From: Haliotis cracherodii
Taxonomy: Eukaryota
NCBI RefSeq assembly: GCF_022045235.1
Contig: NW_027266269.1
Coordinates: forward strand, 5,332,001-5,396,000
DNA length: 64,000 bases
Direction of reading: 5' to 3'
The first letter of the stretch is position 1. Each line of letters opens with the position of its first letter. Position numbers and translations under genes: made by a program. Below, piece by piece: positions 11,146-63,858 of this stretch. The notes beneath the pieces were generated by a model that saw nothing but the letters and a program-made list of their open reading frames with translations, made no database searches and was not told the DNA's origin.

Positions 11146-11755
11146 TACATACTGAATCTGTCCACATCACTTGCTCTTCATCAGCCCGCCGTGATATTGC
11201 TGGAATATTGCTAAAAGCGGCGTAAAACCACACTCACTCATTCACTCACTCACTCTTGACCAGACTGCTTGTACATAACTCCAAGGAGGGAATTGAATGT
11301 AAATAAATAAGACCGCGCTATTACTGCTATAACTGATGTGGACATTTTACACACAATGTCGTTTCTGAGCGCCACCAAACACCCAACTCTACACCCGAAC
11401 GGGAGATCCATAGAAGGGATATACAATTTGTGTTCTGTGTGGGTTTCCTTTTGTTAATAAATGACATAAATCTGAGCTGTGTTAGAAAACTGACATCTGA
11501 TTGGCTCAAGAAACCACGCATCCTTCATTTTGATTTGGCGGTCAAAGGTCACTCATGGTTCACCAGAAGTGACCTGTGGATGACCACTGGATGTTTCGTC
11601 AGATCTTCACACAGAAAGGTATCATATCGAAACTGAACATAGGATCTTAACTCTTGCGGTTCAGTGTTACCCCATATGTGCCCAGATTACCTAACGGACT
11701 CACAAGCAAGCACTCTCCACCGAGAGCCTTACGATCTGCTGACAAACATCTACTG

Positions 11756-12012
11756 ACCCGTGAAGATTCCGGGGTAGAATAGGTCTTCAGCAACCCATGC
11801 TTGCCGTAAAAGGTGACTATGCTTGTCGTAAAAGGCGACTAACAGGATCGGGTGGTCAGGCTCGCTGACTTGATGCTCATGATAATAATCACTGGATTGT
11901 CTGGTCTAGACTCGATTATTTACAGACCGCCGTCATATAGCTGGAATATTGCTGAGTGCGGCGTTAAACAACAAACAAACAAACAAACAAACAAACAAAC
12001 AAAACAAACAAA
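11756..12012 (+). mobile_element. SINE-like family 2 (no tRNA head, structured 5' end, AAAC tail); more than 20 full or partial copies, e.g. 2705-2900, 9785-10290, 15370-15648, 22750-23020, 37020-37280, 48022-48290, 61633-61888
   Basis: Recurrent ACCCGTGAAGAT...GTCGTAAGAGGCGACTAACGGGATCGGGTGGTCAGG...GCTGGAATATTGCTGAGTGCGGCGTTAAAC(AAAC)n on both strands. Confidence 0.9.
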
Positions 12013-18857: not shown

Positions 18858-19104
18858 CTGCAACGAATACGAATCTATCAGATGACGTCATAACTGTCAC
18901 CCATTAATAATCGATAATGGACCAGGCAATCCAGTGATTAAGATCATAAGCATCGATCCACGCATCCCGTTAATCGCCTCTTACGACAAGCATTGGCTGC
19001 TGAAGACATAGTCTATCCAGGATCTTCACGGGTCTCACGCGGACCTATACACTGGAGTATGGGCTGTGGGTCCCTGTTCCCCATTACCCGTCTCAGGTAC
19101 TCAC

Positions 19105-21350: not shown

Positions 21351-23823
21351 TATATAACCCCACTGTCTATTATGTAGGATTGTAAAAGCGAGTATACCTG
21401 TGTGTTGTTTAACGCCGTACTAAAACCAGCGTAACCGACATGACGACTGATTGAGACTTGACCAGGTTAACCAGCAATTGACATTGGCATTGCATGAAAC
21501 CATTCACGCCTTCAGGGTATGATGGCACGCATAAAAGCTTTTGGTTGGTTGATTTTACGGCAAGCATGGGTTGCTGAAGACCTATTTTACCCCGGAATCG
21601 TGTGACCATCCAAAACGCCTCTCACACCTAGCAGAGGTTGTTTCGAAAACCCCACGGGGCTTAAATATTAAAATGGTCATACTAAATTATTGATTTATGT
21701 TTAAAATTCCTTCATAATGTTATTGTTATGAATACACATAACGTGTGTACTATCTGTTATGACTGTCCGTCCATGGAAGGAATAGACAGCATTGCGACTG
21801 TAAACCGTTTGTTTTGTTTCTTTGTTTGTTGTTTAACGCCGCACTCTGCACCCGGGCCCGTCAGTCGCCTCTTACGACAAGCATAGTCGCCTTTTACGGC
21901 AAGCATGGGTTGCTGGAGAGTGGAGACCTATTCTATCCCGGATCTTCACGGTACCACAGTTAACTGAATATGTGCGAAACATTCATTGTAGAAATTCTAT
22001 AAAACCGAAAACCACTCTCGTCTTGTTCGTTTTCTTTATTAAATTGTAAATAAAAGATAAGTTGAGTTGAATTGCTTACCAAATATACATTTCTTTCAAA
22101 AGGATATGTCAAAATAAAGAGGTGTAATATTGTTTCAACAGGAAAACAGGCAACAGGGTTGCTGTAACGCCTACATTAATAAGAGTGAGTGAGTATGGTT
22201 TTACGCCGCTTTTAGCAATATTCCAGCAATATCACGGCGGGGGGACACCAGAAATGGGCTTCACACACTGTACATTAATAAGAGTTTTGTTTGAAGTAGT
22301 TCCCGTTATTTATTGTTTAATGCCCCTCTCAGCAATATGACAGCTGCTTGTGAATAATCGAGTCTGGACCAGACAATCCAGTGATAGACAACATGAGCAT
22401 TGATATGTAGGACAGAAGTAGGCTGAATATAAAAAAAGCATTGGACTTTAAAACAGATACTAGTGAGTGAGTGAGTGAGTGAGTTTGGTTTTACGCCGCT
22501 TTTAGCAGTATTCCAGCAATATCACGGCGGGGGACACCAGAAATGGGCTTCACACATTGTACCCATGTCGGGATTCGAACCCGGATGTGCGGCGTGACGA
22601 GCGAACGTTTTAACCACTAGGCTACCCGACCGCCCCAAAACAGATACTAACATCTCATTTAGTAACATATGTTTTTTTATTGAACACTGCTGAAAGCAAT
22701 AATGTTTTGGTTATGCGTATATACTCTGATTACAGCCCAATTGGGGGAGACCCGTGAAGATTCCGGGGTAGAATAGGTCTTCAACAACCCATGCTTGCCG
22801 TGAAAGGTGACTATGCTTGTCGTAAAAGGCGACTAACGGGATCGGGTGGTCAGGCTCGCTGACTTGGTTGATGCATGTCATCGATCCCAATTGCGTGGAT
22901 TGATGCTCATGATATTAATCACTGGATTGTCTGGGCCAGACTCGATTATTTACAGACCGCCGTCATATAGCTGGAATATTGCTGAGTGCGGCGTTAAACA
23001 ACAAACAAATAAACAAAATAAGCAGACATCAACTAACTGTTCCCAGGAGGAAACCGAACTCTTTGGCCAGTTATAATTCAGCTTACGCGCAGAATTTCTC
23101 TGGAAGAAACTCCCGCTAGAAATCAAACTGGCACCATCCTTCGACCATTTCGAGAAACTGATTAAAACACCTTTTCCGAAAGTACTACGAGTGAGTGAGT
23201 GAGTGTGGTTTCACGCCGCTTTTACCAATATTCCAGCAATATCACGGCGGGGGACACCAGAAATGGGCTTCACACATTGTACCCATGTCGGGAATCGAAC
23301 CCAGGTTTCGGCGTGACGAGCGAACGCTTTAACCATTAGGCTACCCGACCGCCCCGAAAGTGCTACGAGGTTTTTGGCCAGTGAATGCTTCACGTCGTTT
23401 CTCCCATTATTATAATTACCATTTATCCCCCCACACTTTGCGTTCGTCTGTCTATCGTCGACCGCCTCCGTGGTCTGGTGGTAGAGCGTCCGCCCGGAGA
23501 GTTGAAGGTCCGGGGTTCGATCCCCGCCATACCAAAAGACGTTAAAAGATGGTACTTGTTGTTACCCTGTCTGGCGCTCGGCATAAAGGGGCTTAAACAA
23601 GGACTGGTCGGCTCGGAGTCAGTATACTGTGTCTGAGTGGGGTATTCATGTTAAACTGCGGCAAGGTATCTCAGTCTGCTAGCACTGTAAATCGGCATCA
23701 GTCCAGACTAGTACAAGCAGCAACACAAACACACACACGTACATGCACGTCGCTATATAAGTGCAATAATCCTGGACTCGACGTTAAACACAATTTCACA
23801 TCACCTCACCTCACCCATACAAG

Positions 23824-35683: not shown

Positions 35684-38600
35684 TATATAACCCCTATGTC
35701 TATTATGTAGGATTGTAAAAGCGAGTATATTTGTGTGTTGTTTAACGCCGTACTAAAATCAGCGTCACCGACATGACGACTGATTGAGACTTGACCAGGT
35801 TAACCAGCAATTGACATTGACATTGCATGAAACCAATTACGCCTTCAGGGTATGATGGCACGCATAAAAGCTTTTGGTTGGTTGGTTTTACGGCAAGCAT
35901 GGGTTGCTGAAGACCTATTCTACCCCGGAATCTTCACGGGTTATGTTGACAAGTGTGACCATCCAAAACGCCTCTAACACCTAGCAGAGGTTGTTTCAAA
36001 ACCCCCACGGGGCTTAAATATTAAAATGGTCATACTAAATTGTTGATTTATGTTTAAAAGTAATCTATACATCTCTTGACATGGTAGATATGGTATTCCT
36101 TCATAATGTTATTGTGATGAATACACATAACGTGTGTACTATCTGTATTGACTGTCCGTCCAAGGAAGGAATAGACAGCATTGCCACTGTAAACCGTTTG
36201 TTTTGTTTGTTTGTTTGTTTGTTGTTTAACGCCGCACTCTGCAATATTCAGCGAGCCTGACCACCCGATCCCGTCAGTCGCCTCTTACGACAAGCGTAGT
36301 CGCCTTTAACGGCAAGCATGGGTTGCTGGAGAGTGGAGACCTATTCTATCCCGGATCTTCACGGTACCACAGTTAACTGAATATGTGCGAAACATTCATT
36401 GTAGAAATTCTATAAAACCGAAAACCACCCTCGTCTTGTCCGTTTTCTTTATTAAATTGTAAATAAAAGATAAGTTGAGTTGAATTGCTTACCAAATATA
36501 CATTTCTTTCAAAAGGATATGTCAAAATAAAGAGGTGCAATATTGTTTCAACAGGAAAACAGGCAACAGGGTTTTCTGTCATGTTTGTTGTTTAATGCCC
36601 CTCTCGGCAATATGACGGCTATTTGTGAATAATCGAGTCTGGACCAGACAATCCAGTGATAGACATCATGAGCATTGATATGTAGGACAGTAGTAGGCTG
36701 AATATAAAAATAAAGCATTGGACTGTAAAACAGATACCAGTGAGTGAGTGAGTTTGGTTTTACGCCGCTTTTAGCAGTATTCCAGCAATATCACGGTGGG
36801 GGACACCAGAAATGGGCTTCACACATTGTACCCATGTCGGGATTCGAACCCGGATCTGCGGCGTGACGAGCGAACGCTTTAACCACTAGGCTACCCGACC
36901 GCCCCAAAACAGATACTAACATCTCATTTAGTAACATATGGGTTTTTTATTGAACACTGCTGAAAGCAATAATGTTTTGGTTATGCGTATATACTCTGAT
37001 TAGAGCCCAATCGGGGGATACCCATGAAGATTCCGGGGTAGAATAGGTCTTCAACAACCCATGCTTGCCGTAAAAGGTGACTATGCTTGTCGTAAAAGGC
37101 GACTAACGGGATCGTGTGGTCAGGCTCGCTGACTTGGTTGATGCATGCAATCCCAATTGCGTGGATTGATGCTCATGATATTAATCACTGGATTGTCTGG
37201 GCCAGACTCGATTATTTACAGACCGCTGTCATATAGCAGGAATTTTGCTGAGTGCGGCGTTAAACAACAAACAAATGAACAAAATAAGCAGACATCAACT
37301 AACTGTTCCCAGGAGGAAACCGAACTCTTTGGCCAGTTATAATTCAGCTTACGCGCAGAACTTCTCTGGCACCATCCTTGGACCATTTCGAGAAACTGAT
37401 TAAAACACCTTTTCCGAAAGTACTACGAGTGAGTGAGTGAGTATGGTTTCACGCCGCTTTTAGCAATATTCGAGCAATATCAAGGCGGGGGACACCAGAA
37501 ATTGGCTTCACACATTGTACCCATGTCGGGAATCGAACCCGGGTTTTCGGCGTGACGAGCCAATGCTTTAACCATTAGGCTACCCGACCGCCCCGAAAGT
37601 GCTACGAGGTTTTTGGCCAGTGAATGCTTCACGTCGTTGCTCCCATTACTATAATTATCATTTATCCCCCCACACTTTGCGTTCGTCTGTCTATCGTAGA
37701 CCGCCTCCATGGTCTAGTGGAAGAGCGTCCGCCCGGAGAGCGGAAGGTCCGGGGTTCGATCCCCGACCGCGCCATACCAAAAGACGTTAAAAGATGGCAC
37801 TTGTTGTTATCCTGTCTGGTGCTCGGCATAAAGGGGCTTAAACAAGGACTGGTCGGCTCGGAATCAGTATACTGTGTCTGAGTGGGGTATTCATGTTAAA
37901 CTGCGGCAAGGTATCTCAGTGTGCTAGCACTATAAATCGGCATCAGTCCGGAGTAGTACAAGTAGCCACACACACACACACGCGTACATGCACGTCGCTA
38001 TATAAGTGCAATAATCTTGGTCGCGACGTTAAACCCAATTTCACCTCACCTCACCTGCACCTATCATAATAAAAGCGTCAAAAATCTTTCCATATTCATG
38101 AGAAATCACTGCAAGAAACAGTTCCGACTGTTTAATGGTGAGTGAGTGAGTGAGTTAAAGTTTAACGTCACATCAGCAATATTTCAGCCATTTCGTGACG
38201 AAACAAAATTTGACATTTACAATATATTTTAAACTGTATACAATTCTGCCGACAAGGGGCAGTATAATAACTAGAATATCACAGATTTACATAAAACTAG
38301 TTGCAACACAATATAAAAACAGGCCATAGATCGCCAACAACTGAAGGTAGATCACCATGCTAGGGTCCATGGGGACTTACAGTACTTTTGCAACCTGCAT
38401 GGACCCCAGCAGGATTTACACCATCACCAGGTGTTGGCGATTATTGTCAATTTAGCCGAATTAAAAGAACATATATTCTGCGATTAAAAACGTGGTAGTA
38501 ATAAATATACTGTGAATGACGTGGACTTACGTACCATGGCCGGGGGACAATCCTTTTACACTACTTCAACCCCCTTCGAGGTACAGCCACTGACAATCTG

Positions 38601-62420: not shown

Positions 62421-63858
62421 CTGCTGGAGAGTGGAGACCTATTCTATCCCGGATCTTCACGGTACCACAGTTAACTGAATGTGTGCGAAACATGCATTGT
62501 AGAAATTCTATAAAACCGAAAACCACCCTCGTCTTGTCCGTTTTCTTTATTAAATTGTTAATAAAAGATAAGTTGAGTTGAATTGCTTACCAAATATACA
62601 TTTCTTTCAAAAGGATATGTCAAAATAAAGAGGTGCAATATTGTTTCAACAGGAAAACAGGCAACAGGGTTGCTGAAAATCCTACATTAATAAGAGTGAG
62701 TGAGTATGGTTTTACGCTGCTTTTAGCAGTATTCCAGCAATATCACGGCGGGGGACACCAGAAATGGGCTTCACACATTGTACCCATGTCGGTATTCGAA
62801 CCCGGATGTGCGGCGTGACGAGCGAACGCTTTAACCTCTAGGCTACCCGACCGCCCCAAAACAGATACTAACATCTCATTTAGTAACATATGGTTTTTTT
62901 TATTGAACACTGCTGAAAGCAATAATGTTTTGGTTATGCGTATATACTCTGATTACAGCCCAATCGGGGGAGACCCGTGAAGATTCCGGGGTAGAATAGG
63001 TCTTCAACAACCCATGCTTGTCGTAAAAGGCGACTAACAGGATCCGGTTGTCAGGCTCGCTGACTTGGTTGATGCATGTCATCAATCCCAATCATCTCGT
63101 ATTTCCTACAGTGCAAAGTGGGGCGGTCGGGTAGCCTAGTGGTTAAAGCATTGGCTCATCACGCCGAAGATCTGGGTTCGATTCCCGACATGGGTACAAT
63201 GTGTGAAGCCCATTTCTGGTGTCCCCGGCCGTGATATTGCTGGAATATTGCTAAAAGCGGCGTAAAATCAAACTCACTCACTACAGTGCAAAGTAAGGAG
63301 AAGGTATATGGATGAACAACTTCTTTATTGCAATCAGGAACGACGTTTCGGTGTAGGTTCTAACACTGTCATCAAACTAGTACATAGTATGGCTGACAAG
63401 TATTTATACAGGAAGGAGGCGGTGTTAATACAGTAGTGTAGATTTAAGATGTAGATGTAGATGTAACCATGGTTACACTGGAGCGGATTATATTTGTCTT
63501 CTTCTTTAGATTTGAGTATTGATCATGACTACATTTATTTTTTTATATTATGTTATGCCCTGTAAACATGAATTATGATCTGTATGATCTGTGACTAAAC
63601 ACACTTATGATAATGTAAATATGATTAAGGTACTACTTACATTGTGTATTTAAGAAATCGTCATGTAAAAATCAAAATCCATTATATGAAATACTTGTAT
63701 TATGAAATTATCATTTGCTTTGTAATGCAAAGAAACGTCATTTCATTGGATTGTCGCTGGTCGTAAGGGAAGTAACTCTAGCCCCGGATAATATGTTATA
63801 TTGTTTACGTGGTTACCAGGATGGTAAGTTGCGAATGTCTGCGGTACCGGGAAGTTAA

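Follow-up and report, generated by a model that had tools for sequence, protein, structure and literature searches.

The LP-type short interspersed elements (SINEs) of Haliotis and other molluscs carry a head of about 70 nt that has been described, as a sequence, under the name LP, for LINE promoter (LINE, long interspersed element) (PMC4758252). In the parts of that account drawn on here, the named heads are Hdi/Hmi_LP, Lsa_2, Sgl_LP and those of the scallop MESC SINEs, and the same head is common to the 5′ ends of Nimb-17_LMi, I-3_DR and RTE-9_CPB; the domain is presumed to be a promoter, a role stated there to be untested and for which the promoter/ribozyme Pr77 is cited as precedent, and the partner LINE of the LP-SINEs is called unidentified (PMC4758252). 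Two other groups of RNA elements invite comparison. Ribozymes like that of hepatitis delta virus (HDV) lie at the 5′ ends of LINEs of the R1, R2, R4 and RTE groups as well as those of Ingi and LOA, and include the Pr77 of ingi/L1Tc (PMC5786205). Class 3 exonuclease-resistant RNAs (xrRNAs) of plant viruses, such as those of ST9a, SCNMV and PLRV, stop Xrn1 ‘precisely at the base of P1’ and anchor via a T-loop and an AG motif (PMC12397905).

Here we consider a SINE of Haliotis cracherodii, found in a stretch of 64,000 nt (contig NW_027266269.1, positions 5,332,001 to 5,396,000, forward strand) that is called the window below and whose own numbering is used throughout. The stretch 22750–22845, which heads an interspersed repeat of about 270 nt, had been picked out from its letters as a pseudoknotted RNA motif (hereafter, the original prediction). 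The motif is apparently an undescribed, well-covarying RNA fold that is common to the SINE, to LINEs and to viruses. The explanation that we favour, although we rate it somewhat below an even chance, is by analogy and from the predicted fold that the head is a new kind of 5′–3′ exonuclease-resistant RNA, which would fix the 5′ end of the element. What is new here is the second of two pseudoknots, the tandem of ribozyme and motif in LINEs, and a candidate for the partner LINE.

Predicted fold of the head

The fold was drawn from an alignment of 19 sequences (one SINE, four LINEs, seven other repeats and seven viruses, with one to three sources per family). The alignment supports a model in which the head forms two serial H-type pseudoknots, the second of which encloses a hairpin, H5, in its last loop, in the order S1a-U-S2a-S1b-L3(..AGAAUA)-S2b-S3a-S4a-S3b-U-H5-UAA-S4b. 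In the copy studied, the parts are as follows.

22751–22767, + strand: S1 of pseudoknot 1, CCCG (22751–54) with CGGG (22764–67); 88% paired, compensatory change in 2/4 pairs.
22755–22782, + strand: S2 of pseudoknot 1, GAAGAUU (22756–62) with GGUCUUC (22776–82); 90% paired, compensatory change in 7/7 pairs, also returned by RNAalifold.
22768–22775, + strand: loop L3, ending in the conserved AGAAUA.
22783–22795, + strand: S3 of pseudoknot 2, AACA with UGCU (22792–95); 91% paired, compensatory change in 3/4 pairs, one of them with four pair types.
22792–22813, + strand: degenerate first copy of a 22-nt unit (the S3 3′ strand plus the hairpin).
22819–22836, + strand: H5, the intact hairpin GUCG-UAAAAGG-CGAC with a 7-nt loop, followed by UAA; 98.7% paired.
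22838–22840, + strand: S4b, GGG, which pairs with S4a (CCC, 22788–90) and closes pseudoknot 2; 69% paired, compensatory change in 4/4 pairs.

The loop of S1 holds just the linker U and a strand of S2, and that of S3 carries S4a; the loop of H5 is one that we take to be T-loop-like. This copy has a single mismatch in S3, where it reads AACA and the commonest form of the family is AGCA.

Over the whole fold, 87.7% of 431 cells are paired, compared with 70.1% in shuffles and 31–45% in slid controls. Covariation, by which the original prediction proposed that the structure be checked, is present across the 19 sequences for a revised fold: 16 of its 23 pairs show compensatory change, a count reached by only one of 500 shuffles. 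S1 and S3 lay outside the covariance model that built the alignment, to which S2, S4 and H5 were fitted, and S2 and S3 emerged unprompted from RNAalifold. When the two strands of a stem were compared within and between sequences (own-versus-cross), S4 gave p=8e-5 on 14 families and S2 gave p<1e-4 in an initial parse with several mis-assigned sequences; in the parse that gave the S4 value, S1 and S2 were picked by best fit, so that its values for those two are optimistic. The registers of S4 vary between sequences, and S1 has few changes. A version of the fold with the 3′ strand of S3 in an internal loop was overturned by RNAalifold and a column scan.

A pseudoknotted, structured RNA was thus correctly foreseen, and both the GAAGAU/GGUCUUC stem and the hairpin GUCG-UAAGAGG-CGAC followed by UAA are present, but two of the four helices first proposed were wrong. 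The supposed closing stem CCCGU/ACGGG is 41% paired with no compensatory change (p=0.58, 14 families), and the GGGUAG/CAACCC pairing is weak, its three parts being 74%, 16% and 89% paired (p=0.09 on 14 families, p=0.02 on all 23 sequences). That structure as a whole has compensatory change in 9 of 21 pairs, seven of them in the S2 that it shares with the present fold, and 198 of 500 shuffles score as high.

The SINE and its 5′ boundary

The family is as abundant as had been claimed: a 48-nt word from the head has 1,866 exact copies in the host genome (G000) and a 27-nt word 6,478, whereas the reversed words have none. The base before the 27-nt word is G in 5,110 of the 6,478 copies. Target-site duplications (TSDs, at least 9 bp with one mismatch allowed) were sought at 30 loci taken in genome order, 25 of them full length; they fall within −1 to +2 of this first G in 15 of the 25 and exactly at it in 10, as against 21/600 in a control across loci. 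Because the TSDs cluster at the first G, the SINE starts at G22749 and retrotransposes; the common start at ACCCGTG noted earlier is real, but lies one base too far downstream. The copies of the window that bear on these points are listed below.

22749–23020, + strand: whole SINE copy of the LP-SINE type, with structured head, body, LINE-like tail and (CAAA)n end.
22749, + strand: first base of the element, G, 6 nt before the U that links S1 and S2.
22959–23003, + strand: 3′ tail common to intact I-group LINEs of the host genome and to SINE family 1.
11755–11987, + strand: copy with duplicated hairpin; a 13-nt TSD ends one base before the head (by eye).
62972–63092, + strand: single-hairpin copy, 3′-truncated.
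18906–19034, − strand: single-hairpin copy with an internal deletion, first reported as ‘18960’.

The hairpin is, as described, single at 62973 and in the minus-strand copy at 19033, and forms a 22-nt tandem at 11756 and 22750; the duplication is the majority form, seen in 23 of 30 genome copies. The statement that this family (family 2) has no evident RNA polymerase III (Pol III) A and B boxes also holds: against the usual box consensus none is exact, the best match to each departing from it at a single base. Exact boxes do occur in the neighbouring family 1, at 12 and 56. The Rfam tRNA matches in the window fall outside family 2, and ARAGORN finds no tRNA in family 2, but misses family 1 as well. 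The tRNA-headed family 1 (22483–22636, 63121–63283 and others in the window) has the same LINE-type tail core and ends, like the LINE, in (CACT)n, whereas family 2 ends in (CAAA)n.

Judged by the features that can be tested on sequence, the element belongs with the LP-SINEs: it has a LINE-derived head, variable flanking TSDs and a short tandem-repeat (CAAA)n tail, and neither a tRNA head nor Pol III boxes.

The copy at 22749–23020 lacks a TSD of its own. Read by eye, it shares a 5′ flank with the copies at 37020, 48021, 54863 and 62973 and has a 3′ flank that resembles that of the copy at 11755, so that from these flanks it looks like a mosaic of two insertions. Local abundance is inflated by segmental duplication, since the 32 head matches of the window fall into just 11 upstream-flank groups. 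The region from about 15000 to 63000 is a segmental tandem repeat, in which identical SINE insertions recur with their flanks up to six times.

LINEs that carry the motif

A search of the host genome for the first open reading frame (ORF1) of motif-bearing LINEs gave 3,567 candidates, of which 150 were scored and 30 loci examined. The start of the pseudoknot was found in 26 of the 30 and the hairpin in 25, 600–830 nt upstream of the ORF1 match. Full-length elements are about 5.7–6.2 kb long, with an ORF1 of 415–505 aa and an ORF2 encoding endonuclease, reverse transcriptase (RT) and RNase H; both reading frames are intact in most of the elements examined. They have the features of I-group LINEs, the CCHC knuckles of ORF1 being weak in Pfam and recognized by eye, and the label Nimb rests on the head that they share with elements of the LP-SINE account (PMC4758252). 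The motif therefore stands in the 5′ untranslated regions (UTRs) of intact LINEs, which bears out the earlier proposal that the SINE head came from a LINE 5′ end. As the 3′ end of one of these elements (L286) agrees with the tail of the SINE in 30 of 32 positions, this I-group family is a candidate for the partner of the SINE. Six stretches around the top RT matches of another LINE family contained scattered SINE copies, and no motif at the LINE 5′ end.

The LINEs begin 58 nt before the motif, and by its predicted fold this 58-nt segment is a minimal HDV-like ribozyme: P1 (7/7, with G-U at +1), P2 (7/7), P3 (3/3), P1.1, a canonical-looking L3 of 7 nt and the C in J4/2 can all be placed. In Rfam, the segment matches RF02682 (E=0.0019) as well as RF00094 (E=0.27), neither of which reaches the gathering score. 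TSDs abut the first G of the ribozyme (G+1) in four of six full-length LINEs. A pattern for the LINE motif with a purine 11 nt upstream has 588 copies, and among the 100 of these that were listed all keep the 3′ end of the ribozyme.

An HDV-like ribozyme of predicted fold is thus the exact 5′ end of abundant, intact, I-group (Nimb-like) LINEs, for example at L254:667–724 and L281:102–159 (G000:C6:4840101–4840158); Nimb is absent from the ribozyme-bearing clades in the list given by the part of PMC5786205 used here. Several of the LINEs are nested inside other LINE copies, and the region G000:C2:20900000–21750000 holds more than 60 full-length-headed copies in both orientations within 0.85 Mb, which could be a trap of the piRNA-cluster kind.

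The motif in other repeats

The hairpin pattern occurs in at least 120 metagenome stretches, which belong to several unrelated repeat families. In three of these, whose members were picked by eye for complete ends, a purine is fixed at the same 5′ position (18/22, 16/17 and 9/11) and the base one position upstream is mixed. There is no excess of G before the first base (5/22, 2/17 and 1/11), and hence no sign of a capped template.

In one metagenome family (L128, L131, L140, L166, L174 and L176), the motif stands directly before an apparent tRNA-derived head (by eye), a second case of this arrangement after the scallop MESC SINEs (PMC4758252). Tandem or stacked motifs occur at repeat heads in L121:1364–1520, L064, L089 and L090, among them older diverged heads that lie directly before young SINE copies. 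In L108, L148, L156 and their relatives at least about 60 nt, including (TAAG)n runs, are inserted in L3, both stems being kept. Prokaryote assemblies gave five matches to the hairpin pattern, two of them upstream of LINE ORFs, and these LINE loci are probably host DNA; L234/L235 (G001:C4), L230, L231 and L232, which are loci in assemblies of bacterial symbionts or bins, contain an intact eukaryote-type LINE and motif repeats, probably as host contamination. One bacterial locus from the pattern scan, L233 (24.4 bits), was judged a chance match.

The motif in viruses

Scans of viral contigs picked out 28 distinct contigs, of which eight, representing seven distinct viruses, score 36–70 bits; the other 20, found by pattern only and scoring at most 18.6 bits, were judged to be chance. 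Pfam recognizes an RNA-dependent RNA polymerase (RdRp) in four of the contigs (L093, L095, L268 and L271) and a tetravirus-type capsid is encoded in L092 and its twin L094, while the RdRp-like motifs of L091 were seen by eye alone. In all six distinct RNA-virus-like contigs, the motif is on the sense strand and 3′ of the last ORF, at 1, 4, 19, 69, 96 and 194 nt after its stop codon. Such a placement, sense strand and just after the last stop in unrelated RNA viruses, argues that the motif acts as RNA. Second, tandem copies occur in L091 (25.6 bits, truncated where the contig stops) and L271 (the hairpin alone, 15.1 bits, the rest by eye). The three viral loci outside the training alignment (L266, L268 and L271) have among them scores of 69.6, 62.9 and 36.1 bits.

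The 62.9-bit motif is that of L266 (2478–2558), a clean copy between genes, about 110 nt before a long ORF and with an NAD-dependent ligase nearby.

A putative block to 5′–3′ exonucleases

On the reading that we tentatively favour, an approximately 80-nt mobile motif of two stacked pseudoknots and a hairpin, if it folds in vivo as predicted, would block Xrn1 or Xrn2. The SINE would then need no promoter: it would be transcribed by read-through inside host Pol II transcripts, the RNA upstream would be degraded as far as the base of stem S1, and the resulting unit-length RNA would be copied by the I-group LINE, which would recognize the shared tail. In viruses, a block of this kind within the 3′ UTR would yield a short non-coding RNA. 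As a guess, the H5 loop may dock on AGAAUA, a contact made feasible by the helix lengths, according to which H5 leaves at the S2/S3 junction and AGAAUA lies at the S1/S2 junction.

In support of such a role, unrelated non-coding families have their 5′ ends at the base of S1. A passive block is favoured because it fits at once the ends of the SINEs, the ribozyme of the LINEs, the viral 3′ UTRs and the absence of a cap G; in particular, the retention of an upstream ribozyme in the LINEs is compatible with a passive block, and not with a cutter or a start site at the edge of the motif.

Several observations weigh against this explanation. The invariance of H5 is circular, because the homologs were gathered with hairpin patterns, and S2 and S4, like H5, are stems that the model fitted. 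Nested folding of the single SINE head is no better than that of shuffles (z of 0.68 and −0.08, pseudoknots being outside the fold model). In some repeat families L3 has taken up inserts of about 60 nt or longer, although AGAAUA stays beside S2. With an S1 of only 4–5 bp and no P2, a threaded ring is not obvious. The copy in L266, a DNA-virus contig of 212 kb, is intergenic. Small-RNA reads from a related species, 53 in three runs with no pile-up at G1, carry no weight either way. Finally, none of the 100 listed LINE copies, out of 588, is trimmed back to the motif, so that there is no trace in the LINEs of the motif stopping a nuclease, with a pattern that would reveal about half of any copies starting there; its conservation in LINEs may mean another job, for example in translation.

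A wider picture, in which a new structural class of xrRNA, its two stacked pseudoknots clamped by a T-loop hairpin, travels between viruses (RNA viruses and one DNA virus) and the retrotransposons of animals, and in which whole SINE families multiply without promoters, freed from longer transcripts by the decay enzymes of the host, is one that we regard as possible and hold with a little more reserve. The question bears on how SINEs without Pol III boxes acquire their 5′ ends, and on the test of the LP domain called for in the LP-SINE account (PMC4758252). Should the motif prove Xrn1-resistant, animal genomes would encode thousands of copies of a new xrRNA class; retrotransposons would have a third means of defining their 5′ ends, next to promoters and ribozymes; and viruses would have one RNA module in common with host transposons. 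Those copies that lie in introns and UTRs might, in addition, stabilize fragments of host RNA decay. Even if the function differs, Rfam 15 lacks this well-covarying RNA family, which is carried by a SINE of known type.

Alternative functions

An element for cap-independent translation, or one that binds the ribosome or an initiation factor, is unlikely, though the likeliest of the rivals. It would act as an IRES-like leader (IRES, internal ribosome entry site) in the LINEs and as a 3′ enhancer in the viruses, and would let the SINE meet the LINE protein at the ribosome. LINE RNA cut by the ribozyme would be uncapped, yet its two reading frames are mostly intact, and of the 30 ORF1 loci 26 retain the motif after the ribozyme (25 if the stricter hairpin match is applied); 3′ enhancers are known from tombus-like viruses, and stacked pseudoknots from the 3′ UTRs of tobamoviruses. 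Such a role falls short on the SINE 5′ ends, since it leaves unexplained why non-coding families should start at the base of S1; the distance of 600–830 nt from the motif to the matched ORF1 segment, and its occurrence in viruses with very different proteins, also tell against it. A translational role had been among those first offered, and it is the one that stands as a rival, the promoter and ribozyme being disfavoured by the upstream HDV-like ribozyme and the viral 3′ UTRs.

We think it quite unlikely that the motif serves to bind the polymerase of the element itself or a host protein (in template switching, packaging, replication or RNA stability), spread by recombination and with no single shared function. 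The viral s2m is a mobile motif of comparable habit. The acceptance of long insertions in L3 would suit a binding site, as would a distribution that is patchy across LINEs of the I group and RTE (PMC4758252), SINEs, RNA viruses and one DNA virus. However, the reverse transcriptases and the several RdRp types are unrelated, so that a shared ligand would have to be a host factor, and the fixed 5′ geometry would still need to be explained.

An internal DNA promoter, as proposed for the ‘LINE promoter’ (PMC4758252), possibly one that is also an RNA structure like the trypanosome Pr77, is distinctly unlikely. The 5′-terminal position with a purine start in many families and the want of Pol III boxes in the SINE speak for it, as does the position of the motif before the tRNA-derived heads of scallop SINEs (PMC4758252); it fails because compensatory changes occur in RNA viruses that lack a DNA stage and because LINE copies start with the ribozyme, 58 nt before the motif, to which may be added the absence of a cap-G signature and the source paper's own statement that the function is untested.

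The least probable reading is a new class of self-cleaving ribozyme cutting just 5′ of G1. The sharp 5′ end at a purine would suit one, as would the compact double pseudoknot with invariant unpaired bases, in which the sequence of second pseudoknot, then hairpin, then CUAA corresponds to that of HDV P1, P2, P4 and J4/2. But P3, L3 and P1.1 are absent, and with them the HDV active site; H5 pairs the C that precedes UAA; no Rfam ribozyme matches at E≤10; cleavage would take away an upstream ribozyme that all 100 of the listed LINE copies retain, and would detach the 3′ ends of viral RNAs; and contigs of a related species cross the 5′ boundary (37 loose ends, from a run that may be DNA).

Comparison with known families

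No Rfam family matches the head, as the proposed check of that database required for novelty, and the search gave no ribozyme match at E≤10; the same search on five viral loci gave nothing except one unrelated weak match. Rfam 15, which we take to hold models for hammerhead, twister, twister-sister, pistol and hatchet ribozymes, has no family-model match among these five, and parses by hand as HDV, twister or pistol failed to fit the motif. The original view that it is not an HDV, hammerhead or pistol ribozyme is therefore upheld. The literature within reach, which did not extend to Repbase, Dfam, subscription journals or bioRxiv supplements with their possible large motif tables, holds no account of the fold or of the viral link. 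The RNA family thus appears to be new, but not the sequence domain, already published as the LP head (PMC4758252).

The LP-SINEs are close relatives. The scallop heads (Fig. S2 of PMC4758252) have the same hairpin and UAA and fit all four stems by eye, the motif is also found in the block labelled ‘Nimb-17 homology’, and the Hdi_LP consensus of 255 bp corresponds, in a comparison by length, to the present element with one hairpin (PMC4758252). As far as the parts of that account used here go, it differs in giving the head no RNA structure, in proposing a promoter role and in making no mention of viruses (PMC4758252).

With the HDV-like ribozymes of LINEs the motif shares the habit of a module of about 70 nt at the 5′ extremity of otherwise unrelated elements (PMC5786205). 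Its order of S3, S4, hairpin and CUAA parallels P1, P2, P4 and J4/2; however, it has no P3-type hairpin between S4a and S3b, as the HDV definition demands, nor L3 or P1.1 of that fold, it has an extra 5′ pseudoknot, and in the LINEs of the host genome it coexists with a true HDV-like ribozyme, by predicted fold, upstream.

The class 1 and 2 xrRNAs of flaviviruses resemble it in their 5′-end double pseudoknot (PMC12397905). The motif differs in having no 5′ three-way junction, another order of helices and two serial H-type pseudoknots. Flavivirus xrRNAs are placed in tandem after the stop codon, so that the position at the start of the 3′ UTR and the tandem copies are further resemblances.

Class 3 xrRNAs are comparable in anatomy: both have a short 5′ stem, a pseudoknot of 7–9 bp (8–9 bp in class 3), an AG motif before its 3′ strand, a T-loop-like partner and, at the base of their first stem, the end of the RNA (PMC12397905). 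The motif has the P1 at the RNA end and the pseudoknot between apical loop and 3′ segment (S1 and S2), but it is without P2, the J1/2 bulge and a T-loop in the apical loop; where class 3 has AGY, it has AGAAU, with A rather than a pyrimidine as third base; and it adds a second pseudoknot with a downstream hairpin and sits in cellular retroelements (PMC12397905). The motif is thus outside the HDV-like ribozymes, the class 3 xrRNAs and the class 1 and 2 xrRNAs, in each case for want of a defining feature, and by analogy with the last two it may still work as an xrRNA does.
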